Under the pieces are notes generated by a model. That model did no database searches and had not been told where the DNA came from. It saw only the letters and a list, made by a program, of their open reading frames with translations. The translations under genes were made by a program, and so were the position numbers. 64,000 nucleotides of DNA from an uncultured archaeon (lineage in GTDB: Archaea > Asgardarchaeota > Thorarchaeia > Thorarchaeales > Thorarchaeaceae). Positions 33,660-59,919 of this stretch are shown in pieces. Every line of letters starts with the position of its first letter. Positions within the stretch are counted from its first letter, which is position 1. The stretch spans positions 8,832-72,831 of the forward strand of contig CAZPWM010000001.1 of NCBI GenBank assembly GCA_964590575.1, written 5' to 3'.

Positions 33660-36271
33660 TTGCAGAAGAAAGTGGTAAGTACACTTTTGACCCTTTGTCT
33701 AATTCTCTCAAGTGTTCCTGTTCTTCTCTATGTCATGCCGATAGATGAAGTACAGCCAACAAAGATTGAACCAGTGACATTGGACTTTAACAGATTGACT
33801 GAACTTTATGGAGAGCAGATTCCAGTAGTTGTTCGTTTTAATCAAGGTCTCTCGTCTGGATTACAAGATATCATCTCATCTATGCAATTGGAATTTAGCC
33901 TCGGAAGTGCAAGTAAAAGTCACATCGGTTCGTACTATCTACTGAATGGCAATCCGGATAGTCTTCAGGCTTTGATTGATATGGGTGTTGTTGCGAAGAT
34001 TGCTCCGCAGACACATACACAATTTCTGGAAACTCCTAGAGACCTCTCAATTCCAGAAATCAATGCTGATGATGTCTGGTCGACGCTTGATGATTTGAGT
34101 AGAAACATCACAGGTCGAGATATTCTCATTGCGGATCTCGATTCAGGAGTAGATTGGCGACATCCTGACCTCTGGTTTGCTGATGGCGGCCAATACACTT
34201 GGTTTGACCATGCTGCAAACGGTCAGCTGGATAATGGAACTGATGGTATAGATCTCAACCCTGATGGAATCATTATGCCTGATGAGGCTCTGTATGTTCT
34301 TGATTTAGATCGGAATGGCATTTTCAATGTTCGATTTGAATGGGCATGGCTTGACAATGTCACTCAAAATGGATCTCCAGACATCGGTGAACCGTTCTTT
34401 GTTGTGAATGATACTTCGGGTGATGGTTTCCTTGACCTTGGAGAACCCTTGGTCATGTTGGGAACTCCTAAAACCAAGTACATCTTTGAAATGGATGGTA
34501 ATCCCTCACCAAGTCTACAGTTATGGGAGCGTGGAGTGAACCTTACATCAAGCACTCACAAAGACGACAGTCCTTATGGTGGAGGTCATGGAACCGCTGT
34601 CGCTGGAATACTATTGGGTGGACAACTTGGTTTTCGAGACTATGTTGGTGTGGCCCCTGATGCAGAGTTAATGCTGATTCGTGTTATAGGCGATCAGTTC
34701 ACGTGGATCTCAATTGAAGCAGGGCTTGCAATCGCAAACAATACGGGGGCTGATGTTATTCTTACAGAAATCGGGTCATGGACCTATCAATATCTCGATG
34801 GTAGTTCATTGGCTGAGGAAATAATTGACGATTTAGTTGCTGATGGCATTCCAGTAATCTCTCCAAGTGGGAATCTTGGAGGAAAGGACAAACACGCAAT
34901 GATCAACACAGTCCGTTTGCTCCCCATCAGATTGATTTCTTAGTTCCTACAGTAGATGGCCTTTATGTCTTTGAAGACATCACGGAGGTCTACATAACAG
35001 TCCTAACGGTTGATCCCACTGATTTCGTGGTGAGTAATTTTAGTTTGACAATTAATGGAACCACAACCTACCTTAATCCCGGAGTGGGTGAGGGTATATG
35101 GTTCCTGCAATCTAACATTATCCCTGGGGTCAATGTGCAGTCTTACATCTCTACTTCTACAAGAGGTACGAAGATGCTTGCCATCCAACTCTATGGAGCT
35201 CTTCCCACCACTCCTCCCGTCGTGCCCTACCAACTTGGCATCTCAACACCTGATGCCGCAACGATTCATGCGTATATCTCTGATGACCAGAGTGGATGGA
35301 CTGGTGGATGTGTATGGACAACCGACATGGCGGATAGTTATCATATTACATGGCCATCGACAGCAGACAGTGCAATAAGTGTCGCAAGCTATCACACAAG
35401 GAGTCTCTATGGGACAATTGGAGATCGTGCTAGCTTCTCCTCTATTGGTCCAAGGATTGATGGTTTTCCCAAACAGACTGTTGCAGCTCCTGGAGGTTAC
35501 GACATTATCTCAGACTATGCAAATGGTTCTGTTTGGGCCTCTTGGTTTAATGGTGGTGGTGCATTACCTTTTCAGCCGCAGTTTGGAACTTATCGGTTAT
35601 TTAGTGGAACAAGTGCATCAGGACCGCATGTTGCAGGAGCAGCTGCACTGCTGCTTCAAGCCAATGTTACTATTGGGGGTCAAATGAAAGCAATTTTTGA
35701 GTCCACTGCAGTAAGTGATGTGTTCACCGGGGTTGTCCCAAACGACATGTGGGGTAGTGGTAAACTGGATGTGGAGGCTGCATTAGCCTTCATCACTCCT
35801 GGTCCTGATGTTGATGGTCCAGTGATTGGGAACCATAATCGAAGCCCCTTCACGCCTAATTCTACTGAATCAGTACTGGTGAATGTTACAGTGTCAGACG
35901 CTTCTGGGGTCGACACAGTGATTCTTTCATATTACAATGGCTCAACCTGGTTCAATGTCACAATGACTTGGACTGGGTTATATTATGAAGGCACAATTCC
36001 TGCATTCCCGAATGGAACTACTATACTTTATCGTTTCTACGCAAACGACACACTTGATAACTGGTCCATGTCTGGGACATTTAGCTACACTGTTACAGAT
36101 CCTGGAACCACCACAACCACGACCACCAGTACAACCTCGACAACGGGAAGCCCGACTACGACCTCCCCTCCCCCCGAAGAACCGGATTACCTTCGATTGG
36201 CGGTGATACTAAGTGTGGTGCTTGCGTTGATAATTCTGGCAGTTGTATGTAATCGAAGGAGGTCACGATGA
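33660..36271 (+). pseudogene. Subtilisin-like (S8) surface protease, frameshifted: Asp/His/Asn in ORF 33660..34943, Ser in ORF 35027..36271
   Basis: DLDSGVD and HGTAVAG in first ORF; SGTSASGPHVAGAAALL in second; frame +2 reads through 34862..35030 joining them; Thr-rich stalk and C-terminal TM plus RRRSR. Confidence 0.6.
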
Positions 36272-36392
36272 CCAGATTAAGGCAAAGGATAAAAATTTGT
36301 GTTCTTTACACACTCGAAGTAGCGTGAGCAGGTCTTATATGAGCTAAGTTTATTGCGAAGTCGTCGACAAAACAAGACAAAAGGTATCAACC

Positions 36393-36731: not shown

Positions 36732-36765
36732 GTTGGAGAGAGAATACACTCTCCCCAGAATGGTA

Positions 36766-39201: not shown

Positions 39202-39372
39202 CTCCGGTTTCTAACTATAGATTCTGCTGAGCCGGCTCTTAGACTCTTTGTCATAAGTCTTTCTTTCCGAATGAAACTCTCTCACGTTTGAGAAAATTCC
39301 CAAACGTCAAACTTAAATGACTAAGGGTGACGGACACGCGAACCTATAATATCGACGGGGAGACATAAATAA

Positions 39373-39642: not shown

Positions 39643-39746
39643 GTATCTTCGGGTAACCTTAATATCCCTTCACATGGTCAGTTTACATGCCTATCATTAT
39701 CGGCCGTCTGAACACTGACTAATTTTACAATCCGATTTTTCACGGA

Positions 39747-41205: not shown

Positions 41206-41245
41206 TTTCCGAAGTGGACCCCTTCGGTTTGGATGCGTGTACCTT

Positions 41246-41902: not shown

Positions 41903-43681
41903 ATGAATGAAATTAAGGATGTCGCAAGACGCAGTATTTACTTATCTTTATCAAGAACGTACGACCTATACAATTCAGAGAGGAAATCCTACTTGCCTAG
42001 AAGTGTGAGAGAAGTCCCAAAAGAGATTGCTGCATTTGGAGAGCGCCAGTTCAAGGATTCTGGTGCAGCCGCAGTTGAAGTTCTTCGAGTAAAAGCAGCT
42101 GTGATGAGAAAGCACTTTCGTCAATTGAAAGGGATCACATTTCTCGTGGCTGTTGTAGCACGTGATCGGGTTCGAATCTATTTCTTCAACGCTGCTGGAG
42201 TCATGCTTGTGGGTGAGAATGTAGAGGTACCAGTATACCAAAAAGTTCGTGCAAGTTCCAAGCTCATCGCAAAGTATGAGAAACCAAGAGAGCTCACTCC
42301 TGAGGAGCAACGCATTGAAGCAACACAGGAGCTTAGAGAATCGTTAGTCAAAGCTATTCGTCGTGTGACTCGTTTTCTAAATGTAGCTCCGCCAACATTC
42401 CCAGATATTTTCGTCACTCGAACAAGCTCTGAAGAATCCAGCCAAAGTTTTGGGCTTCAGTTAACAGATGATAGGGAATACCTTTTCGAAGAATCCGCAC
42501 TAAAGACAAAATGGGTTGATGGACTCATTACTCGGACAGCGTTTCTTGTGCATCTTGAATCTGCACACTCAAAGACTCATATTGCTTCCTTAGTTGGCAA
42601 TGGGATTGCACTGGCTCTATTGAAGGATCCTGCAAAAAAGGGATTCCGTGAATTCTGGTTGAAAATCAGCAAAGATACAGAATGGTCTCCTCTAGTGAAT
42701 CACATGATCAAGCATTCGGATTGCTATGCGGGTAATGGGTTTGTTAGACTCTATTCACTTCTTCAACAAATATCTTCTTCTAGCTCAGTTGATGATTGGA
42801 TCCTCCCATTCAGAGTAATTCACGATAGTGCGAGGGTCTCAATAGGAACTGAAGAATACCATACAATTCAGGGGTTCTGCAAGACTCTATCAAACCCTCG
42901 AAAATTGAATTCTCGAAAACACAGTCTTGAATCTATTCACATGGCTCCTCGTGTTATTTGCGATCCCACTCCTTTGAACACTCAAATCTTCATCTCCCAT
43001 GGGTCCCCCTCAGATGAAGACTGGGCAACTGTGTCATTCATTGATGGCTCAGAAGTTAAGACACTCAGAATAGGCCCAGCAGATGAATCACGTGTAACAA
43101 CAATAGAATATTGGATGAATCTTGAGGATGTCTACCCTACATCTGGGGGATTGATCTCTCATGGCAAGAATGTTCTCCAGCGAGCTCTAGCAACTCTTGG
43201 GATCGAAACCACTCCTTCTGGGACATTTGAGGCAGCCATTGAATTCTCAGACTCCGTTTTAACCGCTAATGAGAAAGCTGTCCTTGAACGTTTGATTCTT
43301 GGAAAGTCTGATGTATTGTCGAATACATTGGTTGGCTCACCCCAGATAATTGACAAGCTACTTGCTAAAGGGAAAATCATGTTCCTGCCAAGCTTCAACC
43401 ATATTGGAGTGGATTCGGATTATCTATTGAGAGGGCCAACTGATTTAGTGAGGCAAATTGTAAGACAAAATTGCGTTGAGGCTACTCTCTTCAATAACAC
43501 TGCAGAGTCATTTGCTGTGGTTTCTGCCCCTCCAACTTGGAGAGATGGACTTCTTGAATCCACTGTCAAGGAAGGTGTGTCCATCTGGTCCATCATATCG
43601 ACCACCTCGAATAGAAATATTCTGCGTTGTGAGGATTCGTTTCCAAAACAAGTTGTGACCTGGTCTGATGGTGTCACTTGA
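41903..43681 (+). CDS. Large hypothetical protein (592 aa)
   Basis: Long ORF, no motif recognised. Confidence 0.5.
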   Translation: MNEIKDVARRSIYLSLSRTYDLYNSERKSYLPRSVREVPKEIAAFGERQFKDSGAAAVEVLRVKAAVMRKHFRQLKGITFLVAVVARDRVRIYFFNAAGVMLVGENVEVPVYQKVRASSKLIAKYEKPRELTPEEQRIEATQELRESLVKAIRRVTRFLNVAPPTFPDIFVTRTSSEESSQSFGLQLTDDREYLFEESALKTKWVDGLITRTAFLVHLESAHSKTHIASLVGNGIALALLKDPAKKGFREFWLKISKDTEWSPLVNHMIKHSDCYAGNGFVRLYSLLQQISSSSSVDDWILPFRVIHDSARVSIGTEEYHTIQGFCKTLSNPRKLNSRKHSLESIHMAPRVICDPTPLNTQIFISHGSPSDEDWATVSFIDGSEVKTLRIGPADESRVTTIEYWMNLEDVYPTSGGLISHGKNVLQRALATLGIETTPSGTFEAAIEFSDSVLTANEKAVLERLILGKSDVLSNTLVGSPQIIDKLLAKGKIMFLPSFNHIGVDSDYLLRGPTDLVRQIVRQNCVEATLFNNTAESFAVVSAPPTWRDGLLESTVKEGVSIWSIISTTSNRNILRCEDSFPKQVVTWSDGVT

Positions 43682-45541: not shown

Positions 45542-48500
45542 ATGTACAATAGATACTTCATTCTGGCAATCTTACTCGTACCCCTTTTTCTAACTCCCAC
45601 TTCTGTGGCTGCACGAGTGGAATTGAATTCCACATTCGGTTCAGACAGACCGCTGATTGAATCCCGCCTTAGAATGGAGGTTCAATCTTCACCAAATCCT
45701 ACAAGCGCTCTTCTTGAATTCAAGAGTCCTTTGTCATCTACTGAGATCCTTAGAGCTGAAAGTTTAGGAGTCACTTTCGTGAAGCGTGGATCCTCGATTG
45801 TCAACGTTGGCCGGATTTATTCTGTAGAGATAAACAATATCGTTTCTTTGGAAGCCCTATCTGAAATAGGTCTAATCAGAGCCACTTCTGGAAAAAAACA
45901 ATACATACCCGCTCTCTCATCCTCAGTGCCTGCGATTCGAGCTGATGATGTTTGGACGAATCTGAACAAGAACGGTGGGGCAGTCAATGGTTCCGGCGTA
46001 ACGGTTGCAGTTCTAGATACTGGCGCTCTTTGGACACATCCTAGCTTTTGGCGTGCATCACCCGGCGAGTACAAGACCATTAACAATGGGTCTGACTACT
46101 ATGTAGATCTGGATAATGACACGGTGCCAGATTCTACCGAAATTATTCGTTTTGTGGGTGGAGGCGGACCTGACTTTTCCTACGCATTTAACTACATGTA
46201 CATTAATGCAGATGGGATCGCAGGGTTTAGCTATGCATCTGGAGACCGCTGGATTGGTGGAATTGATGCAAATGATGATACGGTCATAACTTTGGGAGTT
46301 GAGAATGTAGTTCTCTTAGACGTATCAAAAGTCGCAGTTTTCTACGACCAAGAACACTCCAACGTGTATGTGAGAGATGTCAATCTCACTCAAGCGGTGT
46401 CCATTGGTGATTATGATGGTCATGGAACACATGTAGCTTCCACTATTGCCGGTGGTCAAGTTGGAATGACATCCTATGTCGGTGTTGCCCCTGGCGCAGA
46501 TTTGATAATTATCAGAAGTGTTCTCCAATCTGCTGACATCTTGGATGGTATAGCCTTTGCAATTGAGAATGATGCGGACATTATCAACATGTCTTTCTCT
46601 TCATATCTGGGATTTTTAGATGGGACTGATTTGGAAGACCTTGCGGTATCAGAAGCGTTCCTGAGGTATGGAGTATTGACAACTGCAGCTGCTGGAAATC
46701 TTGGTAATAAAAACAAACACGCTCGATTCTCTGCGGCACAAGGGTCTTCGGGTTCTGCTTTGATGAGAGTAGATGATGTTGTTATATCAAGAGCACCATT
46801 TCTGAGCTTGTTGTGGCACTCGTCAGACAATGATGAGCATGTTATACTAACACCACCCTCCGGTAATCCAATAGACCTTGGAGCCTTCTCATCTATTGCA
46901 CAGCAATCCTGGGCACTTGAAGATGAAAATCTTGCAGCCTATATTTTTGCGGATGTCAGTATACGAGGGCTCAACAATGTGATAATCCAAGTTTCCACAA
47001 ATGACCATATGTGGGCGAATGGTGTTTGGAATGTAACAGTCACTAATGGTTCGGGTGACCTCATTTGGATAGACGGATTCGCATGGGATGGACGGTGGGA
47101 AACAACCCACTTAACTTTCCAGACCGCTCTTGATTCAGGAAGAAGTATCAGTTCCCCTGCTACTGCTGATCTTGCAGTGGCAGTTACTGCCTACAGTGAA
47201 GTAAGTTCAGGAATTATGAGCGAATCTAGTAAGGGTCCCAGGGTTGATGGCTCTCCAAAACCAACTGTGGCTGCCCCTGGTGATAATATAGCTGCAGCTC
47301 TGGCTAGTCTTACTAGCCTATGGACTTCAAAGGATGGGACCAGTATGGCCTCGCCGCACGTTGCGGGAGTGCTAGCACTTATTCGCCAAGCCTCAGGCAA
47401 GAACTCTGCATGGTTGGACTACTCTGCCTTGGTCAATGGTGCTGGAGGTCAGGCTTCACATTATGAAACAGCCTCGCCCTCATGGGGCCATGGTCTCACT
47501 GATGCTCTGTGGTCAGTTGTTCAAGTTTTAGATTCTCCAGGTATGGATGGTTCTACAATGTCCGATTGGTACGGTGTGAGTGAACTATTCGGAGATGCAA
47601 CAAATCTCTCAGTCAATGGAGGACATGATATCATTTCTGCCAAGTCATTCTTGGACAATGATACTATTGGAATAGCAATAACCATGAGGGCCGCACCTGA
47701 TTTACAGGGTACGGATGTTCTCAGCATTGAGTGGGATAATGATTCAAATGTGGGTACTGGGAGGAACGGAGCTGACATCGTTGTCAATATTACTGGAGGG
47801 TCTGCAGATGTCTATGAATGGAATGGTAGTTCCTATGTAGCTTCATCTCTAGTTTCACAATGGTGGACTGATTCGACAGCAGTGATCCTTCGGCTTGATG
47901 GTATTACTCCTGGCGTTCGTGGAATTATATCTATGAGTACACATAACTCTACGATGAGCAATATCGACCAAGCTGGTCCTGGGACGCTCACTGATATGTT
48001 GCCCCCTGTCATGGAAGACCTCTGGATGCAGTTTAATGATGGTTCAATGATTATTCACCTAGCCACGAGAGATCGCGACACTTCACAAGAACTTCGAAAC
48101 ATTGCGTGGAGTGTTGTCAACGGGCCTCTTGCAACTCTCAACTCATCATCACGAGTAGGAGAAAGCGATTACATAATCACTGTTCCTGAGAATCTGATTA
48201 CTTCTGATTATCTCAATAGCCTTTCATTGAATATCACATCAGAGAGCTTTACTCTTATCTTACCACTCGTTTTGCTTTCAACCCAAATCGGTCCACAACT
48301 AGTGTTTTCAATCGCTACGCTCAACCAAGATGTTGTTCGAGTTGGATTCCTGTTGAATGATTTAATTGCTGGCGAATTGGTGTTGGAGGGTTTTACTCTC
48401 GCTTCCTTGGTCTACGTAGCATTCCATTCTGAATCTGGGTCTTGGCTCAATTTCACTCTTTCAAGTAGTACTGGTCATTACGACTTTGAGATATCCCCCT

Positions 48501-48691
48501 CATACTTCCAACTAGGGTCACATGAGGTATACGCAATCGCTATAGGGCAGGTAGTACCTGGAACATCTCTGAATTTCGCCACTCTAACAGTGGTACAGGA
48601 TTACACTGTGCTAGCTGTAGGGGCTGCAATCCTTATCGTGGGTTGTGGTATAATTGTGATTATGCGAAGACGTAGAGGTGACATAGGCTGA
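45542..48691 (+). CDS. Subtilisin-like (S8) serine protease, secreted/surface-anchored (1049 aa)
   Basis: Signal peptide; VAVLDTGA (Asp), HGTHVASTIAGG (His), AAGNLGN (Asn), GTSMASPHVAGVLALI (Ser); C-terminal TM plus RRRRG. Confidence 0.85.
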   Translation: MYNRYFILAILLVPLFLTPTSVAARVELNSTFGSDRPLIESRLRMEVQSSPNPTSALLEFKSPLSSTEILRAESLGVTFVKRGSSIVNVGRIYSVEINNIVSLEALSEIGLIRATSGKKQYIPALSSSVPAIRADDVWTNLNKNGGAVNGSGVTVAVLDTGALWTHPSFWRASPGEYKTINNGSDYYVDLDNDTVPDSTEIIRFVGGGGPDFSYAFNYMYINADGIAGFSYASGDRWIGGIDANDDTVITLGVENVVLLDVSKVAVFYDQEHSNVYVRDVNLTQAVSIGDYDGHGTHVASTIAGGQVGMTSYVGVAPGADLIIIRSVLQSADILDGIAFAIENDADIINMSFSSYLGFLDGTDLEDLAVSEAFLRYGVLTTAAAGNLGNKNKHARFSAAQGSSGSALMRVDDVVISRAPFLSLLWHSSDNDEHVILTPPSGNPIDLGAFSSIAQQSWALEDENLAAYIFADVSIRGLNNVIIQVSTNDHMWANGVWNVTVTNGSGDLIWIDGFAWDGRWETTHLTFQTALDSGRSISSPATADLAVAVTAYSEVSSGIMSESSKGPRVDGSPKPTVAAPGDNIAAALASLTSLWTSKDGTSMASPHVAGVLALIRQASGKNSAWLDYSALVNGAGGQASHYETASPSWGHGLTDALWSVVQVLDSPGMDGSTMSDWYGVSELFGDATNLSVNGGHDIISAKSFLDNDTIGIAITMRAAPDLQGTDVLSIEWDNDSNVGTGRNGADIVVNITGGSADVYEWNGSSYVASSLVSQWWTDSTAVILRLDGITPGVRGIISMSTHNSTMSNIDQAGPGTLTDMLPPVMEDLWMQFNDGSMIIHLATRDRDTSQELRNIAWSVVNGPLATLNSSSRVGESDYIITVPENLITSDYLNSLSLNITSESFTLILPLVLLSTQIGPQLVFSIATLNQDVVRVGFLLNDLIAGELVLEGFTLASLVYVAFHSESGSWLNFTLSSSTGHYDFEISPSYFQLGSHEVYAIAIGQVVPGTSLNFATLTVVQDYTVLAVGAAILIVGCGIIVIMRRRRGDIG

Positions 48692-48747: not shown

Positions 48748-49968
48748 ATGTTCAATACGCAGTCTGAAATTCAAATTATCACTGAGGAAACATTAGAATC
48801 TCACAGAAAACCAGGCGCCTCGATGGCACTTGAGTTTCCTGATACTTCAGATCTCCGGATAGACGATTGGTCGTTTGATGCTCTCTCAAAGAAACGAATC
48901 GCCACCATCACAGGAACTCAGGTGACGGGAGGAGATTCCACCTCCAAAGAAATCTATATCAAAGGATCCCATGGCGAGAAGACTTTGAGCTATGACAGAC
49001 TCATCTTAGCTACTGGAGGCATTCCTGCTTTGCCGAATATACCCGGTACGGATTTAGCAGGTGTCTTCACAATTCAGACGATGGCTGATACAAGTGAGAT
49101 TGGAAACCAGTTGTCTGGGATGAAATCGATTATAGTTGTTGGCGCTGGTTTCAGCGGTCTCGAAACTGCTGAGAGGCTTCTTTCAATTGGAAAAGATGTT
49201 CACCTCCTTATACGATCCCGACTTATGCGAAAACAATTGGAGGAACCAATGAGCCTGGAACTTCAGTCAAGAATTCCAGACAGACTGAATGTACACGTTG
49301 GTAAATCCCCTTCATCCGTAATTGGGGATAAAAAAGTGCAAGGAATAACTGTTGGTTCAGAAACAATTCCTGTCGATGCGATTCTTTTCATGACCGGTGT
49401 CCGACCTAATACCGAGCTTGCTAAGAAACTTGGTGTCAAGATTGGCCCCTTGGGAGGAATAGTAGTTGATGAAGCGATGAAGACATCTGTGAATGATATC
49501 TTCGCAGTCGGCGACTGCGTTGAGATGAAAGATTCGCTTACTGGAAAGCCACTTCTTCTTCCAATTGGTAGTGTAGCCGCTCGTGCAGGTCGACAAGCAG
49601 GAGTTACCGCAGCAGGTGGCTCCAAGATATATGATGATACACTACGTCGCCTACAGTATGACCATATCTTCAATACTGATATTGTTGTAGTCGGTCATTC
49701 AACCACAACTGCTACCGAGATGGGCTTGAAAACTGATGTTCAATATTTTGAGGATAGCACAGAATTTGCGAAAGTAGCTTTAGTCACAACTGATGATGGA
49801 CGCCTTGTTGGAGGTCAGGTGATATCTTCACGCATGGGTGCTCGGCTTGGTTATGAAATACTTGAGCGAGTTGAGTCTGGAGCCACCCTAAGAGAAAAAC
49901 CCCTTCTCAAACCACGTCACGAAAGATTGCGTGAGTATCTAGAATCTACTTATGGTCCTATTCGATAG
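48748..49968 (+). CDS. FAD-dependent pyridine nucleotide-disulfide oxidoreductase (N-terminus probably begins upstream at a non-canonical start)
   Basis: Second Rossmann IIVVGAGFSGLE, C-terminal FAVGDC; first Rossmann motif KIIIIGYGPGGAAAAVAAR encoded in-frame at 48691..48747. Confidence 0.8.
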   Translation: MFNTQSEIQIITEETLESHRKPGASMALEFPDTSDLRIDDWSFDALSKKRIATITGTQVTGGDSTSKEIYIKGSHGEKTLSYDRLILATGGIPALPNIPGTDLAGVFTIQTMADTSEIGNQLSGMKSIIVVGAGFSGLETAERLLSIGKDVHLLIRSRLMRKQLEEPMSLELQSRIPDRLNVHVGKSPSSVIGDKKVQGITVGSETIPVDAILFMTGVRPNTELAKKLGVKIGPLGGIVVDEAMKTSVNDIFAVGDCVEMKDSLTGKPLLLPIGSVAARAGRQAGVTAAGGSKIYDDTLRRLQYDHIFNTDIVVVGHSTTTATEMGLKTDVQYFEDSTEFAKVALVTTDDGRLVGGQVISSRMGARLGYEILERVESGATLREKPLLKPRHERLREYLESTYGPIR

Positions 49969-52897
49969 ATGGCGGTGGGAGTTCCCACTCATCATCATCT
50001 GCTTTCTGTGTGTTGAGGTATCGTCGAGGTGGTTTTTGTCGACCTTGAATCCTGGTTAATATGACATATCCGAGGCCAATTCCAACTACTCCCAAGAGTG
50101 AAAAGATAACTGTCAATACCAAGGCATCATCCGCCGCATAAACTGGAACTAGTATGGTTTTCGTAAAGATCCTCACATTCCCTGCTAAGTCGGTAGCTAC
50201 AACTTGGATAGAAAAGAATCCTCCACTATTGAAAATAAAGGAAGTTGAAAATCTATAACCGAATTCCTCGAGGATAGCACCAGTCAGGTTCACTCCAGCT
50301 GGTCCAATAATACTCATTGAAACACTCTCAAGATCGTCGTCGAAAATGTATGCTGACACATTTGCTTCTTGACCAAACTCACCGATGTTAAGTTTAACAT
50401 CAAATATCCTTGGAGCATCTGGTATGATAATAGTAGCTAGATTTCTCAAGAGTCTAAGATTATCTGCACCTACACTGATTGCATCAAATAGAATATCATC
50501 ATACAAAGTCGATCCGTCTGATATTGCGAAGACCTGTCCACGACCATATTCAGCTGTAGCAACAATGGCATGAGTCCTACCAGTATCTTCCCAGAGCAGA
50601 CCTCTCGCATTAGATATACTTGAGTTCACATGAAGTGTACTGCCTTGGACGACATAGAGGTTGTTCACACCATCCATTAATGGATCATTCTCTACGTAGC
50701 CGCTGTAGTTGGCACCGTATACCAATCCATATCCTTCAAATCCAAATCCTATTGCCCTCCTTTCGCACTGGATGCCAAACGGTCCGAGAATCGCATTGTA
50801 ATCATCGAAAGCAAATGATGCCTCTCCAGTAACCTGATTAAATGATTCTGAAAAAACAAGCAGTGTCCCTCCGTTCTCAACAAACGCATGAATCGCTGTT
50901 ATTTCACTCACAGAGTATGACGTTTCTGTGTCCATGATTGTGAACACATCTGCACCTGAAATTGTGCTCAAATCAATATAGCTTCTAGAGAAGTCTTCAG
51001 AATTGCCAAACTCTGACACTACCATTCCTTTCTCTCTAAGATATTCCGTAAAGTATCCATAGTATGAGGGGTCATCAATATCCCCGTCTGGGCCACTGGA
51101 ATGATGCTCCATGTCCACCATCATTCTCCCGCCAAAAATTGTGACGGTGTATCTGATTTCAATTGATGCAACAACATCACTTCCTTGTGTCAAATTGAGA
51201 TGACCTGTATATACTCCAGCAGCAGAAAGAGGTACGCCTTCAGGTATTACGAGTTCAACCTCGAAGTATGAATATCCTGTTGTTACTATAAGCTCTTCAA
51301 CATCTGTTTCGATAAATTGACTTGCATTCCCTGAGAGTGTGATGTTCACAAGACCTATTGATTGTGTCGAGATGACAGCAACATTTTGAGGGGGGCGATT
51401 ATCGCCAACAATAAGGACCTGTGAGCTTCCTGGTAGGGTTGGAAGGCTCCGTGGTGTCATCAGAGTTATGTCTCGTGCTGAGCTATCCAGAAGCTGAGAT
51501 GCTTTAGATACATTTGCCAAACCCCACCCCTGACTCATCGGGTCATCTCCTAGATCTTGTGCTGTGCTCATCAGAGCTACCTTTGCCTCCACTGGTGTAA
51601 GAGCCGAATGCCTCTGTGTTAGTAGAGCAATCAATCCCGCAATCATCGGTGTTGAAGCAGAGGTTCCGGACCAACGAGTATAACTGGTGCCAAACTGACT
51701 ACTGTTATAAGCTGGATATTCAAGAGCGTTGACATTGTTTCCTCTTCCTGAAACCACCTGATTTCCTGGTGCTACAACATCTGGTTTTGCAGTGTATCCT
51801 AGTGGATCTGAAGATGTTCGCAACACAGGGCCAACACTACTAAATGCTACAACACCAGTGTCACCAAATGAAGACCCAACTGTGACTGCTTCCTCTGCTA
51901 CCCCTGGAGAATTGATTGTAAATGCTGCTGGTCCTGAATTCCCAGCAGCAACAACAACAGAAATCCCGGCTGCAACTGCATTTTTAATCTCACTTATCGA
52001 TGGTTCAACAATGTACAAGCTGTCGACCCATTCTCCTCCCAGACTGATGCTTATGACATCCACATTTTGTTCGATTGCAAACTCAATACCTTGGGCTATT
52101 ACATCATCCTCACCAGATCCTGAAGCATCAAGCACTTTAATCGCTAATAGATTTGCACCAGGAGCAATTCCCATAAGACTACCATTGCTTGCAGTTCCAT
52201 CGCCTACCGCATTCCATGCGCATGCTGTTCCATGTCCATTGTCATCATAAGCAACAATACCGTTTCCAGGATTCATATCATCTTGACCATCAATCAAGTC
52301 CTTGAATCCAATCAAACGATTTTGAAGGTCCGGATGGCCACTCCAAACGCCACTGTCCAACACTGCGATTGTTGTACCTGTGCCATTGTAACCCTCAGCC
52401 CACATCAGGTCTGCACTAAGAATTGAATCGAAGTGAACATATCCGTTCCCGTTTTCAGCTAGAACGTATTTCTCTTGAGGTATAACTTCGTCAAGTAGCT
52501 GCCGTTCCTGATTCATCTTTATCGACTCCATGTTGGATACTTGAGAAAGAGCTTGGACTTCATCAACTCTGAGTGATAACGAAACCATAGGAATCAAGTG
52601 AAATGCATATCTTATTTGGACACTGTCAATACCTGCTAAGCTTATTCTTTCTACCATCTCATCAGTGGATGTTCCTTCTGGGAATTTCACTATGACTGAG
52701 ATGCGACTGTCAGATTCCATCGTAGATAATGCTACAGCAATGTCGGAATCAACGAGAGCATTCTTGTGTTCTGTTTCTTCTGTTACAGCTCCTGAATAAA
52801 TGGCGATAGGTGTGAATAGGAGAGTCAGAAGTACGACAGCCACAAAACGTCGATAGTATAATTTGTGGATAGCTGGCATGTTCAAATGTCCTTCCAA
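49958..52897 (-). CDS. Subtilisin-like (S8) serine protease, surface-anchored (979 aa; real start possibly Met at 52879)
   Basis: Signal peptide, TTIAVLDSGV, HGTACAW, AAGNSGP, WSGTSASTPMIAGLIALL; C-terminal TM then charged tail. Confidence 0.85.
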   Translation of the reverse strand: MEGHLNMPAIHKLYYRRFVAVVLLTLLFTPIAIYSGAVTEETEHKNALVDSDIAVALSTMESDSRISVIVKFPEGTSTDEMVERISLAGIDSVQIRYAFHLIPMVSLSLRVDEVQALSQVSNMESIKMNQERQLLDEVIPQEKYVLAENGNGYVHFDSILSADLMWAEGYNGTGTTIAVLDSGVWSGHPDLQNRLIGFKDLIDGQDDMNPGNGIVAYDDNGHGTACAWNAVGDGTASNGSLMGIAPGANLLAIKVLDASGSGEDDVIAQGIEFAIEQNVDVISISLGGEWVDSLYIVEPSISEIKNAVAAGISVVVAAGNSGPAAFTINSPGVAEEAVTVGSSFGDTGVVAFSSVGPVLRTSSDPLGYTAKPDVVAPGNQVVSGRGNNVNALEYPAYNSSQFGTSYTRWSGTSASTPMIAGLIALLTQRHSALTPVEAKVALMSTAQDLGDDPMSQGWGLANVSKASQLLDSSARDITLMTPRSLPTLPGSSQVLIVGDNRPPQNVAVISTQSIGLVNITLSGNASQFIETDVEELIVTTGYSYFEVELVIPEGVPLSAAGVYTGHLNLTQGSDVVASIEIRYTVTIFGGRMMVDMEHHSSGPDGDIDDPSYYGYFTEYLREKGMVVSEFGNSEDFSRSYIDLSTISGADVFTIMDTETSYSVSEITAIHAFVENGGTLLVFSESFNQVTGEASFAFDDYNAILGPFGIQCERRAIGFGFEGYGLVYGANYSGYVENDPLMDGVNNLYVVQGSTLHVNSSISNARGLLWEDTGRTHAIVATAEYGRGQVFAISDGSTLYDDILFDAISVGADNLRLLRNLATIIIPDAPRIFDVKLNIGEFGQEANVSAYIFDDDLESVSMSIIGPAGVNLTGAILEEFGYRFSTSFIFNSGGFFSIQVVATDLAGNVRIFTKTILVPVYAADDALVLTVIFSLLGVVGIGLGYVILTRIQGRQKPPRRYLNTQKADDDEWELPPPSIE

Positions 52898-53361: not shown

Positions 53362-53486
53362 CAGACTAGGGCTTTATCCGGGATTTTGTATAGTCGGACA
53401 TGCCTTTCTATATTCGACAACAATACAAAGTTAATTTTTATCCTCCAAGAGGATTCAGGTTCTTGCGTCACACAGGAGGATTCTCA

Positions 53487-54578
53487 ATGTTTAGTCACTT
53501 ACCATCTGTTGGATATGAGCTACTTGTTGATTTTCAAATTCCAATGGATGATATCGTCGCAGCGATACCATACGTCGTGCCACTACTAGCACTTGCAATA
53601 TTGTTGTTTCTTTATCAAAGACATTTACCACAGACCGAAATGAAACGTAATATCACGCTATGCATCGGAATCCTCGGTTTTGGTGCTGCAATGATTGCAA
53701 TCATATATTCCACTTTCGGAACTTTGTTGGGTTTTGGATCTGCAAGCACTTTCGGGCATTTTCTACAACTCTTGACTGATATCTTCTTTGGATCTATATG
53801 GAGCTCACTTCTTTATTTTGCGGGTTTTATTGTGGTTCTCTCAATCATTGCCTACTATCTTATTTCACCACCTGATCCTGATCTTGTCGCATTACGCGAA
53901 GAGCTCAAGAGTTCAAAGAGTGAATCTAAGACTTCAAAGGATGAACTTCAGAAACTGGAGGCGGAGAACAAGAAGCTCACTGAATTTGTTTCTGAAAAGG
54001 AGGATACTCTAACTGCTCTTGAAGGTGAACTTGAAGCCATCAAGGCTGAGATTGGTGAACGCGAAACATCAATTGCGCTGATGGAAGAGCAACTGAAGGT
54101 TGGTTCTACTACTGCACCTAGTCCGGATGAGAACCTTCTTGAAAAAATCAAGATGAAGGATGCACAAATTCAATCCCTAGAAAATGAAATAGCTGATTTT
54201 CGTCTTGCAGCTGAAGGCTTACCACGACATCATGCACCAGCAGCTGATGACAATATTGTCATTGAGCTATCAAGCAAACTAAACGAGGCTCAGACAAAAT
54301 GGGAAGACCTAAGCCGAAGAGCTGAAACCGCCTCTGAAGTTTCAGATAGTGTCATCTCAGATTTAGTTGAGTTAATCTCTCACGTAGAATCAAGCAATCA
54401 AAGTGATGGAGGCAAACAGGCATTGGTCACGTTGATTGAAAGTCTAGGTCGTTCTATGACTCGAGTAGCTAGAGAAATTGGCGATTCCCATGGCGAAGAA
54501 CCTAAGATTGAGATGATTGGGGCAATAATCATGGTGAATGAGATCGTAGACACTATCAAGAAGATGGTCAGGAAATAG
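53487..54578 (+). CDS. Membrane protein with long C-terminal coiled coil
   Basis: GGAGGA 8 nt upstream of ATG 53487; 4 TM then heptad-rich EL/KL region. Confidence 0.55.
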   Translation: MFSHLPSVGYELLVDFQIPMDDIVAAIPYVVPLLALAILLFLYQRHLPQTEMKRNITLCIGILGFGAAMIAIIYSTFGTLLGFGSASTFGHFLQLLTDIFFGSIWSSLLYFAGFIVVLSIIAYYLISPPDPDLVALREELKSSKSESKTSKDELQKLEAENKKLTEFVSEKEDTLTALEGELEAIKAEIGERETSIALMEEQLKVGSTTAPSPDENLLEKIKMKDAQIQSLENEIADFRLAAEGLPRHHAPAADDNIVIELSSKLNEAQTKWEDLSRRAETASEVSDSVISDLVELISHVESSNQSDGGKQALVTLIESLGRSMTRVAREIGDSHGEEPKIEMIGAIIMVNEIVDTIKKMVRK

Positions 54579-55017
54579 TCCTCCTCCAGATTTCTCACTT
54601 CATCATCTTATATTTTCAATATGACATTGAAAGTTACATATTTTTGAAGATTGTTTCAAAAGGTGGTGTATCAGTATACACATTGACATTTTCCAAGCTT
54701 CATATCCGTTTTTGTTCGAAAAAAAGGAATATCCGCCTTCTTTTTATTCTTTTGAACTTTCTCGGCTCGAGCATAGACCATTCGGGGAAAATGAATAGCA
54801 CAAATTAGTACAAGTCTTGCGCAATCCTTAATAGAGGCAATCATGCTGTTCGTTCTTAATCACAAACCCTTGGAGAACGTGAATAGAGGAGAGAACTGAG
54901 CAATACTTGGTCAGTTTTGGAGGTTTTTGTACGTTTAGAGAGGATATTATCTTTGCGGAAATTGTGCTATCTAGACGGTCTGGTTCTCCATTGAAAAAGT
55001 GAGGAGATAAATATAAA

Positions 55018-58000
55018 ATGAATAACCTGAGAAAAACTGCGGTTTTACTTATTGTTGGTGTGTTCATATTTAGCATGGTACTTGTACCTTTCACACCAAT
55101 GGCCAATGTTGAATCCCAGGCAGCAGCTCCGACCAATTATCAAAAGGATTTCGTAGATAAGTGGGCTACACGCCTACAAGACGAGATGCCGTCGGAGAAA
55201 ATGGATTCGGTACTCGCATCCTATATCGAAACAGGTGTTTTGGATCAGAATGTTGTTACCACAAGAAGTGGTGACATCAAACTGGTTCTATACATGGAAC
55301 CAACGTTCGATGCATCTATACTGGCAAATATTGCTAAAGTGAACTGGAAGTTAGATCTAAAGTTGGTTACCGTTGTATCAGTTGATGTCAGCTCAGTTGA
55401 AGCTTTGAAACAGCTTAAGACTGTGGACAGTATTCAATATATTCAAGCTGATTATTTCCTAGAACCTGAACCGATTGTGGATCTGGCAAACGAAGTTGAG
55501 CCCTCAATGTTCGTAATCAATGATATGATTGGTGCCACCGGACCCTATGCTTCTGGATACAGCGGAACTGATGTTGTCGTGGGTGTCGTCGACTCTGGTG
55601 TCGACTTCAGTCAAGAAGACATGAGAAACGCTGAGTACAACAATGGTACCTATCCGATGTCTTACGACCCGTCAAGCATGGGTCTGACAGAGATGGTAAT
55701 TGGAAACAGCACTGTCGTCACCAACACAACTGCTTGGCTCGAGGCTGGCAACCTTCTCACATATGAGATGGGTGGCAAATACTACCTAAATGTCACTGGC
55801 TGGGATCCAGTCTGTAACATGGAAGGTAGTGCCAGACACCTAATGGGTCTTGCACCTCCATACGGAGATGGTTACCCATACGGTGCGGTTATCGGATTCG
55901 TCGGTCTATATGAGTGGGCTTGGGGTGGAAACAATATGTCCGAGTTCGTCTACAATGAGATGTGGAAGGACTGGGAGATTCCTGCTCCTGTTGCCGCTAA
56001 CTACACATTCGGTTGGGCGTTCCAACAGAAGATTGATGGATATGCAAAGGTGTTTGCGCCTTCAATGGTCTACGATGGTGGTCTAGTCATTGACTGGAAC
56101 GGAACACTTGGTTGGACTAGAATGTGGAATTGGGCCATTGCTTCCCAGAATCCTAACTATCCACAGTATCTGCCCACTGAGATTGATCTCAACACGACTG
56201 TTGATAGAGATTTAATCAAAGGTATGATGGACTGGAGCTACGTCGATGACATAGCTGCAAGTTACGTCTTCAACAAAGATAAGAACATCCTCATGGCTGA
56301 TGTTGACGATGATGGTACAATTGACTGTGGCCTTGGCTCACTGAGCTGGGCATATGATGATCTTGGTTGGTTGACAGTTAACCCTGGCCTGTTCTTCGGT
56401 ATCACCGATGATGGTATGGCATGGAACGCATTGTTCACAACTGACACAGACCATGGACACTGGACAGCTGCAACTATTGCATCTGCAGGCACCTACGGTC
56501 ATGATGTATATGGTAACGGAACTCTCTATTACTTACCTGGAGTAGCTCCCGGCGCGAAAATAATTGCTTCTAAAGGAATTACATCGGGTGGTGATCTAGC
56601 AGCACAAGTCTGGGCTATGGGCTTCACCCTAAATGAAACCTCTGGCTACTGGGAATACATTGGAGATGGTCCGGAACACAGAGCACACATGGTTTCCAAC
56701 TCTTGGGGTTGGGGTCCTGGTGGTATGTACCTACAGCTGAGGATTTACTCAATGGTGTACGACCTAGCATCAGTTCCTGGTGTATTGGCACCTTCCTATC
56801 CTGGAGTGCTCATGTTCTTCTCTGCCGGAAATGAAGGCACTGACTACGGTTCAATGGGTACACCTGGTGGTACATTCTCTGTGGTATCAGTTGGTGCGAC
56901 AATGGCTAACCACTTGTACGCAGATACCTACTATCCATACCAGCCTAACTATCAACAAGCATTCTTCACGGCGACCGGACCTGCCTACGCTGGCTTTGTT
57001 AAGCCTGATGTAATGGCGCCCGGTTTCTTCGGGTTCAGTCCAGAACCATCCGAGAATGATTGGCTTGATGCAGGCGATACGTTCCTATATTGGTCCGGAA
57101 CAAGTCTGTCCTGTCCAATAGCTGCGGGCGTTACTGCACTCATTATGGATGCCTACAACGTCAATAATGCAATGATGCCATCCCCACAAATGACAAAGAA
57201 CATTCTCTTGTCATCTGCTACAGATATGGGTCTCGACCCATTGAACCAAGGTCATGGCTTTGTCAATGCTGAAGCTGCATGCGCTGCTATCGAAACTGGT
57301 GCTGTTGCCGAATATGTCTTCGAAACAGCAAGCTTCAAGAACTACGGCGAGCAGATTGCAGACTCATGGGCATACTGGGTTGCTGACTGGTCTCCATTCG
57401 GCGACATCTACTACAACGACACTGCTATCCCAGCCCTGCTAGATCCTGCAGGTCTTGAGTCAAGCAGTCTATTCTTCGGTACTGTCGTTCGTGGAGAGAC
57501 TAAGGAAGTCACAATGTCCATTGTGGACTATGCAGGAACTGGTGCAGTTCTTACTGACTTCGATACTGTCCAACCATGGTACTACACTGAAGCCAGTAAG
57601 CTAGAGTTCTCACTCACAGGCTACAAGTACAATGACACAAACTTCGATCCCTACATCCTAAGAGATGGATACTTCAATCTCTTTGACAACATGACTGGCC
57701 CTGAGCAAACCGCCTTCTTAGACGCCAACTACGCGACAATCCAGATTGCGTTTGATGCGGCTGATACCGGTATCTCTGCTCGTCTGTTTGATTGGAGTGA
57801 CACATCTGGTGGGACAGAATTGAACTTCTGGAACACTAGCACAAGTACAGGCGACTATCTTGTCTATGTCCACAGGTGCAATGGACCGAACCTCCTGACC
57901 ATGCGTGTCGGGAGTGCAGGAACATTGGCTGACCTCTTCAACTACAACCCAACACTGATACTGTTTGGTGCAGATGGAGTCACAGTGGATGTTACCATCC

Positions 58001-59883
58001 AAGTCTGGGGTAAGACAACCACAACTGAAGTTGATTTAGCAGACTTTGCTGCAGGTGTGGTCAATGCAACACTGACCGTTCCTGGCAATGCGGAATACGG
58101 AGTTCATCAGGGTTCAATCACCTTCACTGATGGAGCATGGACTCACGAGATTCCATACTCATACACAGTCGAGATGGATCTGACTGGCGCTGAGGGTGCT
58201 GTAATGACCCTCGTCGATGGAGCTGGTCCTGAAGTGACCCCATACGATACTGGAACAGCGATAACCTACTTCACTCCTGGTACAACTAGTACTCAGGAAG
58301 GTGGTGGTTTCACAACGTTCCACATCGACATTCCGTACAACATTGCAATCAATGCATCAGTTCTCGTTATGAGGGCTGAGTGGATGAACGCAGGAACAGT
58401 CGTAGACATGGCTCTGAGGACTGAAACCGGTGCAGGCATCACTGCTACAGATTCTGGTGGTCTACCATTCGATCCACATCCAACAGGTGCCCTGACTAAT
58501 ACTATAATCTGGCAGCCTGGTGGTCTGATCAATGGAACCTACTGGTTTGAGTACAACATTCATGTGTTTGATGGTGCAACCGTACCGGAACCCATCACAA
58601 TCACATTCCAGTTGTATGGACCTACCTCTCTACAACCTGGTGACCCAGGCTTCACTTGGACCGCACTCGATCACGTCTCACCGACAACGATCAATCCAGA
58701 TGATGTGCTAACAGGTGACCACGTCGTGATTGAGAGCTCTTGGAGCATTCCAGTAGTGGCTGGTCTACCTGAGTATTCGACTATAACTCAAACGAGGATC
58801 TCATTTCTGCAGGGACTCTATAAGGAAATTGACGGAATCTATGCAGATCCCCAAGGATACGATGCATGGCCCGTTCCGTTGCCGAATATTGGTACCTACA
58901 ACTGGGAAACCGTTGATGGAATCAAAGCAGAGGATGTCGTTCACGTATCCATAGACTCACAAAATGCTGCTGATCCAGCAATTCAGGTCTATCCCTGGGA
59001 TGACATCAACCTCGATGGCGAGGTTGATTACGAGGACGAGCTTGGTACTAAGCTAATAGACCAAGACCAAGGTACAACTGGAAACGGTGAGAGTGGTGTC
59101 TTCACGGCTGCCGAAGATATGAGCATTGCTATTCTTGTGTTTAACTTCGCATATGTATACCAACCTGGTGTGCATTACACACTCATAGTTGACTCACAAG
59201 TTGCATTAGACATTGACAGCGAACCAGGCACTCTTGAATACACCTCGTATGAGACATACGACTTCCTGAGGAACGTCACATTCTCCGTCAAACTGTATTG
59301 TTGGACAGAGACTGATGTTGCTTGGGTACTCAATTACGGTTCATTGAGGTTCGAGAACTTCTTTGCACCAGTCGTCACTGTAAACGCAGCTGTTGACCTG
59401 GGTAACGATATGTGGAACTTCACATGGACTGCATCCGATGCCAACATGTACGATTCGTTGTACTATAGCATATGGCTCAGCTCAGATGGTGGAAACACGT
59501 TCCAGTTAGTGAGCCAGAATCTGACGGAGACGTTCTATGTGTGGGATTCAGACGGATTCCTAATCGATGACTACATGTACAAAGTTAAGGTCTACGACTG
59601 TGACCACACATATCTCGTTGGTGGTGTTCCACTAGGTACAGCCGATACGCCGCCTTCGTCATACTGGCCAGGTCTGTCAAGTGATTCCATTAGCGCTTCG
59701 TTCAACGCTGGAAATGTTCCGCCAATCACGACAACCACAACGACAACGACTACTACAACTACAACTACTACAACTACAACTGTAGTACCCCCGCCATTCG
59801 ATCCCTTGTTGATTGGACTGCTGGGTGGAATCGGTGTTGGTGTAGTGGTTCTGCTGATACTCTTCCTGATCAGGAAGAAGTAA
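55018..59883 (+). CDS. Giant subtilisin-like (S8) serine protease (1621 aa) with poly-Thr stalk and C-terminal TM anchor
   Basis: Signal peptide; VVGVVDSGVD, HGHWTAATIASAG, SAGNEGT, WSGTSLSCPIAAGVTALI; (T)18 then VVPPPFDP-TM-RKK. Confidence 0.85.
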   Translation: MNNLRKTAVLLIVGVFIFSMVLVPFTPMANVESQAAAPTNYQKDFVDKWATRLQDEMPSEKMDSVLASYIETGVLDQNVVTTRSGDIKLVLYMEPTFDASILANIAKVNWKLDLKLVTVVSVDVSSVEALKQLKTVDSIQYIQADYFLEPEPIVDLANEVEPSMFVINDMIGATGPYASGYSGTDVVVGVVDSGVDFSQEDMRNAEYNNGTYPMSYDPSSMGLTEMVIGNSTVVTNTTAWLEAGNLLTYEMGGKYYLNVTGWDPVCNMEGSARHLMGLAPPYGDGYPYGAVIGFVGLYEWAWGGNNMSEFVYNEMWKDWEIPAPVAANYTFGWAFQQKIDGYAKVFAPSMVYDGGLVIDWNGTLGWTRMWNWAIASQNPNYPQYLPTEIDLNTTVDRDLIKGMMDWSYVDDIAASYVFNKDKNILMADVDDDGTIDCGLGSLSWAYDDLGWLTVNPGLFFGITDDGMAWNALFTTDTDHGHWTAATIASAGTYGHDVYGNGTLYYLPGVAPGAKIIASKGITSGGDLAAQVWAMGFTLNETSGYWEYIGDGPEHRAHMVSNSWGWGPGGMYLQLRIYSMVYDLASVPGVLAPSYPGVLMFFSAGNEGTDYGSMGTPGGTFSVVSVGATMANHLYADTYYPYQPNYQQAFFTATGPAYAGFVKPDVMAPGFFGFSPEPSENDWLDAGDTFLYWSGTSLSCPIAAGVTALIMDAYNVNNAMMPSPQMTKNILLSSATDMGLDPLNQGHGFVNAEAACAAIETGAVAEYVFETASFKNYGEQIADSWAYWVADWSPFGDIYYNDTAIPALLDPAGLESSSLFFGTVVRGETKEVTMSIVDYAGTGAVLTDFDTVQPWYYTEASKLEFSLTGYKYNDTNFDPYILRDGYFNLFDNMTGPEQTAFLDANYATIQIAFDAADTGISARLFDWSDTSGGTELNFWNTSTSTGDYLVYVHRCNGPNLLTMRVGSAGTLADLFNYNPTLILFGADGVTVDVTIQVWGKTTTTEVDLADFAAGVVNATLTVPGNAEYGVHQGSITFTDGAWTHEIPYSYTVEMDLTGAEGAVMTLVDGAGPEVTPYDTGTAITYFTPGTTSTQEGGGFTTFHIDIPYNIAINASVLVMRAEWMNAGTVVDMALRTETGAGITATDSGGLPFDPHPTGALTNTIIWQPGGLINGTYWFEYNIHVFDGATVPEPITITFQLYGPTSLQPGDPGFTWTALDHVSPTTINPDDVLTGDHVVIESSWSIPVVAGLPEYSTITQTRISFLQGLYKEIDGIYADPQGYDAWPVPLPNIGTYNWETVDGIKAEDVVHVSIDSQNAADPAIQVYPWDDINLDGEVDYEDELGTKLIDQDQGTTGNGESGVFTAAEDMSIAILVFNFAYVYQPGVHYTLIVDSQVALDIDSEPGTLEYTSYETYDFLRNVTFSVKLYCWTETDVAWVLNYGSLRFENFFAPVVTVNAAVDLGNDMWNFTWTASDANMYDSLYYSIWLSSDGGNTFQLVSQNLTETFYVWDSDGFLIDDYMYKVKVYDCDHTYLVGGVPLGTADTPPSSYWPGLSSDSISASFNAGNVPPITTTTTTTTTTTTTTTTTTVVPPPFDPLLIGLLGGIGVGVVVLLILFLIRKK
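59728..59781 (+). repeat. (ACN)18 codon repeat encoding poly-threonine linker
   Basis: acgacaaccacaacgacaacgactactacaactacaactactacaactacaact. Confidence 0.8.
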
Positions 59884-59919
59884 GCACGTAGGATCGTTAC
59901 AAATAGTTTAACGGAATAT

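Follow-up and report, generated by a model that had tools for sequence, protein, structure and literature searches.

An ancient, syntenically conserved set of four large S8 subtilases, probably glycosylated and membrane-tethered, in a Thorarchaeales genome

Four genes encoding serine proteases of the S8 (subtilase) family are packed into 26 kb of a 64,000-nucleotide stretch of DNA from an uncultured archaeon of the Thorarchaeales (GenBank assembly GCA_964590575.1, contig CAZPWM010000001.1, positions 8,832 to 72,831 of the forward strand), which is referred to here as the window. Genes A (33660-34943 and 35027-36271), B (45542-48691) and D (55018-59883) lie on the plus strand and gene C (49958-52897) on the minus strand, all of them as long open reading frames (ORFs) whose coordinates agree with those of the initial annotation. 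Taken as a whole, the explanation that we regard as likely is that these genes form an ancient and fixed set coding for glycosylated proteases, which are tethered to the cell surface and digest external protein. The view of their products as surface-anchored glycoprotein proteases, already advanced by the initial annotation, is right; the recent expansion proposed there is wrong, and the suggested processing by an archaeosortase is unsupported. Public records already name orthologs as 'S8 family serine peptidase', and the four genes refine an existing picture, that of several surface-exposed serine proteases in Thorarchaeota, fitting a peptide-fermenting life in sediments.

Family membership was checked with the Pfam profile PF00082 (cut-off of 21.8 bits), which all four ORFs pass: the two halves of A score 42.7 and 57.4 bits, B 121.3, C 178.1 and D 100.4. 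Every protein keeps the catalytic Asp, His and Ser residues in this order together with the oxyanion Asn, within the motifs D[ST]G, HG[TH], GN and GTS, at positions D161/H310/N405/S650 in A, D159/H294/N386/S601 in B, D181/H222/N320/S413 in C and D192/H479/N605/S696 in D. The complete Asp/His/Asn/Ser set previously attributed to each of them is borne out, and those of D do not vary among 23 aligned sequences of its family. The subtilisin fold was tested for D only, where an AlphaFold2 (AF2) model of residues 1-800, with a mean predicted local distance difference test (pLDDT) score of 73.5, contains a subtilisin core that matched the structures of 1wmd (E 3.8e-13) and subtilisin BPN' (E 5e-12). 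Matches to anti-phage S8 enzymes (IteS) and to mycosins were discarded as generic S8 similarity, far below cut-off; in the case of the type VII secretion system mycosins (TIGR03921, cut-off of 278.75 bits), the top score was that of C, with 114.5 bits.

Gene A (33660..36271, plus strand) is interrupted in the window by a 1-nt frameshift, as originally pointed out, and PF00082 is found on both of its halves. Three-frame translation shows frame 0 ending at a stop codon after ...GNLGGKDKHAMINTVRLLPIRLIS, with frame +2 going on as ...SPFAPHQIDFLVP, and the orthologs read KHAMINT[AV]PF[AV]PHQIDF at the lesion. Translation and alignment together indicate that one C was lost from GTC CCG at 34913-34914, where the window has CC instead of the ortholog-implied CCC (GTC CCG TTT, encoding V-P-F). 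The gene is unbroken in over 90 orthologs (840-910 aa), the closest of which are 83-85% identical; the repaired product would reach about 868 aa, compared with 860-890 aa for intact orthologs of up to 85% identity. Programmed frameshifting was ruled out, as the orthologs are read in frame across the site. The deletion may have inactivated the gene recently, or else it stems from a faulty assembly. A true pseudogene, in which loss of a single base brings a stop 10 codons further on, is a serious candidate although not the favoured one, because the gene shows no other damage, being otherwise 72-85% identical to its intact orthologs, and the lesion falls within a short C run, a context typical of indel errors. 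The layout of A comprises a signal-like N-terminus, an I9-type propeptide region, a catalytic domain with insertions between Asp and His and between Asn and Ser, and a beta-sandwich, followed by a Thr-rich linker, a PDYL motif, a transmembrane (TM) helix and RRRSR. The C-terminal module PPPEEPDYLRLAVILSVVLALIILAVVCNRRRSR (36176..36268, plus strand) follows the pattern xD[YTP..]L, TM helix and basic end that is shared by 83 of the 95 full-length proteins of the A family, with a recurrent boundary and end of the form (E/T)EPDYLRLA...RRRS(R/K). As a module of exceptional conservation, however, the A-family tail was rejected, with a value of 0.47 compared to a family mean of 0.57, and what recurs in it is limited to the short boundary of the PDYL type and the basic end.

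The architecture described by the initial annotation is common to the four proteins in part. At the N-terminus, each one presents a basic n-region followed by a hydrophobic segment, so that a signal-like sequence, presumably cleaved, is present in all four as had been claimed, and a strongly hydrophobic helix is found at or near every C-terminus. The density of N-x-S/T sequons is 1.48 per 100 aa in the subtilases and 0.38 in the 22 cytoplasmic proteins of the window used for comparison (Poisson P ~9e-20). Compared with the expectation from composition shuffles, A carries 19 sequons versus 6.3, B 17 versus 9.9 and D 20 versus 12.2, whereas the 11 of C versus 7.1 are not significant (p 0.08); the reported richness in sequons consequently stands for the group and, when each protein is compared with its own shuffles, for all except C. 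A similar picture is obtained for the large insertions or extensions ascribed to each protein. The spacing between Asp and His is 149 aa in A, 135 in B, 41 in C and 287 in D, and the one between Asn and Ser is 245, 215 and 93 aa in A, B and C, which leaves A and B with two insertions each, D with a single and very large one between Asp and His, and C with a near-canonical domain and a C-terminal extension only. Regarding the Thr/Pro-rich linker, helix and short basic tail, the linker is present in A, with a run of seven Thr, and in D, where the 18 consecutive Thr reported for the 1621-aa protein are indeed seen, but it is missing in B and C, and C has a 37-aa tail past the helix instead of a short basic one. 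Altogether, a signal peptide, a sequon-rich ectodomain and a C-terminal TM helix fit the layout of archaeal surface glycoproteins, and from their sequences the four products are most likely glycosylated, membrane-tethered surface proteases.

The age of the set can be judged from the divergence of its members and from their positions in other genomes. The identity of A to B is 27% along some 700 aa, that of C to D is 27% within the catalytic domain only, and A or B can be aligned with C or D over about 110 residues. On the other hand, orthologs of B and C that are 69-75% identical were found in two related loci (L003 and L005), which show the order B, oxidoreductase, C (convergent and overlapping), LMBR1-like gene and D-like gene. 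The longer order B, pyridine-nucleotide oxidoreductase (pyr_redox), C, small ORF, LMBR1-like gene, D, nitroreductase, 2-hydroxyacid dehydrogenase (2-HADH) and CitG is kept in these two loci and in L007 and L008, and another locus (L004) carries an ortholog of A about 9 kb upstream of B. In two further Thorarchaeota assemblies that keep the order through CitG, the identities are 41-44% for B, 45-47% for C, and 45% and 33% for D. Low identity among paralogs, together with orthologs at the same positions in divergent genomes, indicates that the four genes are an ancient, fixed and syntenically conserved set of the chromosome of this lineage and not a recent expansion. The idea of a family that is now expanding locally, prompted by four S8 genes lying so close to each other, can practically be discarded, since the paralogs are at most 27% identical or barely alignable, differ in their insertion patterns and C-terminal domains, and have one-to-one orthologs in the same order in other Thorarchaeota, down to 33-47% identity, a situation that the initial annotation itself had named as one that would weaken its proposal. 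Such a positional set means that the four enzymes can be treated as four distinct families in the annotation of Asgard genomes. Relatives of B come from metagenome-assembled genomes (MAGs) labelled Candidatus Thorarchaeota and Promethearchaeota, and nearly all homologs of A and D that carry a source name belong to Thorarchaeota, with some from Lokiarchaeota, Hermodarchaeota and Sifarchaeia.

With respect to function, each protein would be made as a pre-pro-enzyme and exported by means of its N-terminal signal sequence. As known for the family, an I9-type propeptide, whose homology is seen for C only, would help folding and then be removed by self-cleavage, and the sequons would be N-glycosylated. 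The mature enzyme would behave as a type I membrane protein, retained at the surface by its single C-terminal helix and a basic stop-transfer end, with A and D standing on a Thr-rich spacer, probably O-glycosylated, and D additionally on some seven beta-sandwich domains. Such enzymes would most likely serve to convert external proteins into peptides to be imported and fermented by the cell. The extracellular protein-degrading lifestyle suggested by the initial annotation is plausible and has already been proposed for Asgard archaea, where extracellular peptidase genes are reported to be highly expressed, including those of Thorarchaeota, and serine peptidases to dominate the peptidase genes of Gerdarchaeota (preprint 10.1101/858530). 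Moreover, STABLE, a surface-bound archaeal subtilase, has a proposed role in feeding (PMC5744192). A further indication comes from three D-type homologs (P0019, P0020 and P0031), in which an N-terminal SBP_bac_5 domain, a peptide-binding domain of the OppA type, precedes the same expanded S8 domain; these fusions tie proteolysis of the D type to peptide capture. It is the combination of these fusions with the Asgard data and the STABLE precedent that favours nutrient acquisition.

Alternatively, the enzymes might mainly process the own surface proteins of the cell through maturation, shedding or turnover of the envelope, as proposed for STABLE on the tetrabrachion precursor (PMC5744192). Apart from this precedent, four very different and individually conserved enzymes suggest distinct and specific tasks, and none of the four genes adjoins transporter genes. 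We nevertheless consider such self-processing improbable as the main role, given the OppA-type domains fused to several D-type homologs and the catabolism of peptides and amino acids inferred as the lifestyle of these archaea (10.1101/858530). The proposal of external digestion has in turn two points to its detriment: unrelated housekeeping genes are interspersed among the four subtilase genes and flank them, so that their co-regulation is not implied, and no gene for a peptide transporter was found in the 64-kb window.

Gene D (55018..59883, plus strand) encodes the largest of the four enzymes, a 1621-aa protein regarded in the initial annotation as unusually large for a subtilase. About 33 homologs cover most of its length and nearly all of the complete ones have 1570-1680 aa, and solved subtilases of 1346-1647 aa exist; its size is notable but not exceptional, and normal within its own family. 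The family was met in Asgard MAGs only, every member with a named source being from Thorarchaeota or Lokiarchaeota, and the next matches are S8 proteins of about 1300 aa from Desulfurococcaceae (P0035, E 1e-22) that cover about 25% of the query. A family-specific insertion of approximately residues 200-470 (55615..56427, plus strand), delimited with the AF2 model and the alignment, separates Asp192 from His479; it is confidently modelled and found no structural match in the Protein Data Bank (PDB) beyond the subtilisin core. In the model of residues 761-1621 (mean pLDDT of 79), about seven beta-sandwich domains of the Ig/FN3-like type (residues ~818-1564; 57469..59709, plus strand) are followed by the run of 18 Thr (residues 1571-1588; 59728..59781, plus strand), predicted as a disordered linker, and by the terminal helix. 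A Foldseek search with this C-terminal model returned just generic multi-Ig/FN3 ectodomains, with TM-scores of about 0.1, among which no specific homolog can be named. D thus defines a clear family of ~1600-aa enzymes with a new insertion domain, whose peptide-binding fusions link cutting with capture.

Some other observations concern the D family. Four D-type homologs (P0019, P0020, P0029 and P0031) reach up to 2586 aa, with the N-terminal SBP_bac_5 fusion and PKD-like domains near the C-terminus. Two contigs of the Joint Genome Institute (JGI) from different samples (L001 and L002) are 100% identical to positions 54878-59912 and 54889-59913 of the window, spanning D alone with some 130-140 nt upstream and 29-30 nt downstream, and several further D homologs also lie on JGI contigs of about 5 kb; contigs containing only gene D would fit assembled monocistronic transcripts. 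Downstream of D, 37 nt past its stop codon and before a convergent nitroreductase gene, a GC hairpin (GGGGGC TTT GCCCCC) followed by a T-rich run (59920-59952) is a possible bidirectional terminator.

The most constrained part of D is, however, its C-terminus. The module FDPLLIGLLGGIGVGVVVLLILFLIRKK (59797..59880, plus strand), made of a DP boundary, a GxxxGxxxG helix (G-LLG-G-IGV-G) and a basic end, constitutes the last 28 residues of the protein and its most conserved 28-aa window, with a mean column identity of 0.73 versus 0.39 overall in 27 full-length proteins (rank 1 of 1594), above the windows that hold the catalytic residues. Neither recent recombination nor an overlapping DNA or RNA element lies behind such conservation, as the tail DNA of the window, L007 and L008 is ~68% identical, with synonymous differences in 12-14 of the 21-22 codons that specify the same amino acid; diverged (saturated) synonymous sites point to selection on the protein. 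When a profile of the tail was compared with 1.84 billion representative proteins, 53 matches were obtained at E <=0.001, nearly all of them at the extreme C-terminus. Most are D-family proteins or fragments, and about 15 have unrelated upstream parts: near-identical tails occur in an FG-GAP fragment (P0185, PPPIDPLLIGVLGGIGVGVV...) and a LamG-like fragment (P0195), looser ones in beta-helix/NosD proteins (P0194 and P0206) and in a protein with InlB-B repeats (P0204), and another in a complete secreted protein of 269 aa (P0202). All carriers other than S8 proteins that have a source name are from Thorarchaeota or Sifarchaeia. Two other searches were less productive. A word-index search with a 44-aa tail profile gave only five short fragments and did not recover the D family, its candidates being saturated by poly-Thr words, and in a metagenome scan with the tail alignment, a single one of 600 pattern matches was confirmed by tblastn (L006, a D-type fragment).

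How this tail works may be explained in several ways. The reading that we prefer is that D has a permanent but not merely passive anchor, whose helix would pack with copies of itself or with a partner in the membrane, as its conservation and glycine pattern suggest. Two considerations weigh against it, since this glycine-zipper view is drawn from the sequence, and since a recognition signal common to several proteins would account for the tail on unrelated proteins no less well than self-association. A more ambitious proposal, which we put forward tentatively as one with perhaps a modest chance of being correct, is that the tail, with the consensus [ILF]DP[LI]LIGLxGGIGxGVV..LILFL after a Thr/Pro linker and before a basic cluster, represents an undescribed sorting or docking domain of Thorarchaeota and Sifarchaeia, common to unrelated families and recognised by a membrane partner, either a processing enzyme or a common platform. 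If true, it would be to the Thor lineage what Loki-CTERM and Heimdall-CTERM are to theirs, and would offer a way into the construction of the Asgard cell surface.

A related but distinct possibility, close to what the initial annotation had in mind, is that the tails of D, and perhaps of A, are true sorting signals, in which a membrane enzyme (archaeosortase-like, rhombosortase-like or other) recognises DP or PDYL, cuts, and re-anchors the protein to a lipid or releases it, in parallel to the PGF-CTERM/ArtA system of haloarchaea. PGF-CTERM proteins carry a tripartite tail after a Thr-rich linker, and tails of this kind common to unrelated ectodomains are how sorting signals were first recognised. 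The same succession of signature, TM helix and basic cluster after a Thr-rich linker is seen here, on a tail more conserved in D than the active site, and D-type tails are attached to FG-GAP, LamG-like, beta-helix and InlB-repeat proteins as well as to a few members of the A family (P0149 and P0150). The four tails were scanned against NCBIfam at E values of up to 10, and none reached the cut-off of any sorting-signal model (PGF, PEF, VPXXXP and PIP types, Loki-CTERM NF033507 or Heimdall-CTERM NF045529), leaving no signal of the archaeosortase type. The tail of B obtained 22.5 bits with LPxTATN (cut-off of 32), 11.9 with Loki-CTERM (19.9) and 7.8 with Heimdall-CTERM (24), whereas A, C and D did not match Loki-CTERM or Heimdall-CTERM and D matched no sorting model at all. 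Neither an archaeosortase or exosortase gene nor any other candidate sorting enzyme was found in the window or in the ~130 kb of related loci (L003-L013), and literature searches on Loki-CTERM, on archaeosortases in Asgard archaea or Thorarchaeota and on Asgard surface-protein anchors gave nothing on sorting in these lineages.

The pattern of conservation also speaks against sorting. Known sorting signals conserve the motif and vary the helix. In the D tail the entire helix is conserved, a better fit to helix packing, and Asp-Pro is a common helix N-cap. Moreover, neighbouring surface proteins in a related locus (L009) have the same design of linker, TM helix and basic end with quite different helices, as plain type I anchors would. 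True sorting signals are for these reasons unlikely, and helix packing is the reading that we retain. Even so, the membrane helix of D is more constrained than its active site. If the tail turns out to be a recognition signal, its sequence could be used to inventory the surface proteins of these archaea, and the search for the machinery that handles it could start from there; this conserved and shared tail is the sole feature of the four genes that might lead somewhere new. As to the locus just mentioned, positions 1-16257 of L009 hold genes for four successive large surface proteins (987, 1161, 1055 and 888 aa), each ending in a poly-Thr linker, a TM helix and a basic tail, and the two with recorded Pfam hits are of the beta-helix/NosD type. 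Genes for membrane methyltransferases of the PEMT/ICMT family are found a few kb from genes of tail-bearing surface proteins in two unrelated loci (L009, 2466-3050, minus strand; L012, 4277-4948, minus strand), a proximity that may be due to chance.

The two remaining enzymes lack a Thr linker. Gene B (45542..48691, plus strand), assigned through PF00082 and through orthologs of 69-73% and 41-44% identity, encodes 1049 aa with a C-terminal extension of about 400 aa, a DY-type boundary, a TM helix and RRRRGDIG; in its C-terminus, ...TLTVVQDYTVLAVGAAILIVGCGIIVIMRRRRGDIG, the folded domain runs directly into the helix. Gene C (49958..52879, minus strand), assigned by PF00082, a match to PDB 3afg and its orthologs, is a Tk-SP-like subtilisin whose start codon is most likely the ATG at 52879, in agreement with the orthologs, the longest ORF extending to a TTG at 52897. 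Its product comprises a propeptide, a canonically spaced catalytic domain, a DUF4350/GIFT-like domain, the TM helix and the 37-aa tail RIQGRQKPPRRYLNTQKADDDEWELPPPSIE, which ends in PPSIE. In the C family (49958-50068, minus strand, and the orthologs in L003, L005, L007 and L008), an invariant PPSIE-COOH follows an acidic W-E stretch and is kept even among orthologs only 45-47% identical, so that the tail looks like a short C-terminal recognition motif, putatively for a cytoplasmic partner.

Among the housekeeping genes between and around the subtilases are those for a CLC channel, a class-V aminotransferase, a DUF1015 protein, MGMT, an EF-Tu-like GTPase, a pyridine-nucleotide oxidoreductase, an LMBR1-like membrane protein, a nitroreductase, a 2-hydroxyacid dehydrogenase, CitG, RFC, XPB and RIO kinases. 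Three neighbours match families of the eukaryotic type: the LMBR1-like membrane protein (53400-54578, plus strand), with a weak match and retained in every related locus at its place between C and D, a choline-transporter-like/DUF6159 membrane protein (28783-30153, minus strand), and the GTPase of the EF-Tu family (43674-45365, minus strand), of 563 aa with a long N-terminal extension. Two genes for RIO-domain kinases stand in tandem (16029-17666, plus strand), the second one starting one base past the stop codon of the first, and a radical SAM/SPASM protein (21857-23290, minus strand) has a PqqD-like domain at its N-terminus, the layout of peptide-modifying maturases. No Pfam match was obtained for five successive ORFs of 287-349 aa at 4178-9456 (four on the plus and one on the minus strand), nor for the ORFs at 23850-25979 (709 aa), 27211-28440 (409 aa) and 41903-43681 (592 aa).

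When compared with known systems, the enzymes differ in their closest relatives. A and B are nearest to the clostridial Csp germination subtilases (CspB/CspC; PDB 4i0w and 9pr9), as the alignment passes through the long insertion between Asn and Ser (residues 290-618 of B), which occupies an equal place in the fold, and the NCBIfam CspBA model is matched with E 3e-18, although far below its cut-off. The cut-offs for CspBA and CspC (1250 and 675 bits) are not reached by B (65 and 28.9) or by A (24.4 and 22.7), and both proteins differ from Csp in their extra insertion between Asp and His, signal sequences, TM anchors and archaeal host. A and B are not germination proteins, and the resemblance is one of insertion position only. 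C is closest to Tk-SP of Thermococcus kodakarensis (PDB 3afg), with which its propeptide and canonical subtilisin domain align (residues 48-467, E 8e-57); both are archaeal extracellular enzymes, and C has some 500 aa more, with the DUF4350/GIFT-like domain, the TM helix and the conserved tail ending in PPSIE. For the catalytic half of D, the best match in sequence and fold is with the high-molecular-mass subtilisins KP-43 and SubHal (1wmd and 5fax), and then weakly with tripeptidyl peptidase II (TPP II, 3lxu). No global similarity to the latter was found, since the sequence match is restricted to residues 595-755 of D (E 1.2e-5) and Foldseek gave a TMq of 0.32 with an rmsd (root-mean-square deviation) of 12.5. 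TPP II, a cytosolic enzyme, likewise has its catalytic Asp and His set apart by a long insertion. Unlike KP-43, SubHal and TPP II, D combines a 287-aa spacing between these residues with about 860 more residues of beta-sandwich, a poly-Thr linker and a TM helix. In its C-terminal design, D is comparable to PGF-CTERM (ArtA), Loki-CTERM and Heimdall-CTERM proteins, which likewise have a Thr-rich linker, a short boundary motif, a hydrophobic helix and a C-terminal basic cluster. A further parallel is found in STABLE of Staphylothermus marinus and the pyrolysin-type subtilases, which are also very large archaeal enzymes displayed at the surface on a stalk and proposed to feed peptide fermentation (PMC5744192), with the difference that what holds STABLE is the tetrabrachion stalk of the S-layer and not a TM helix of its own.

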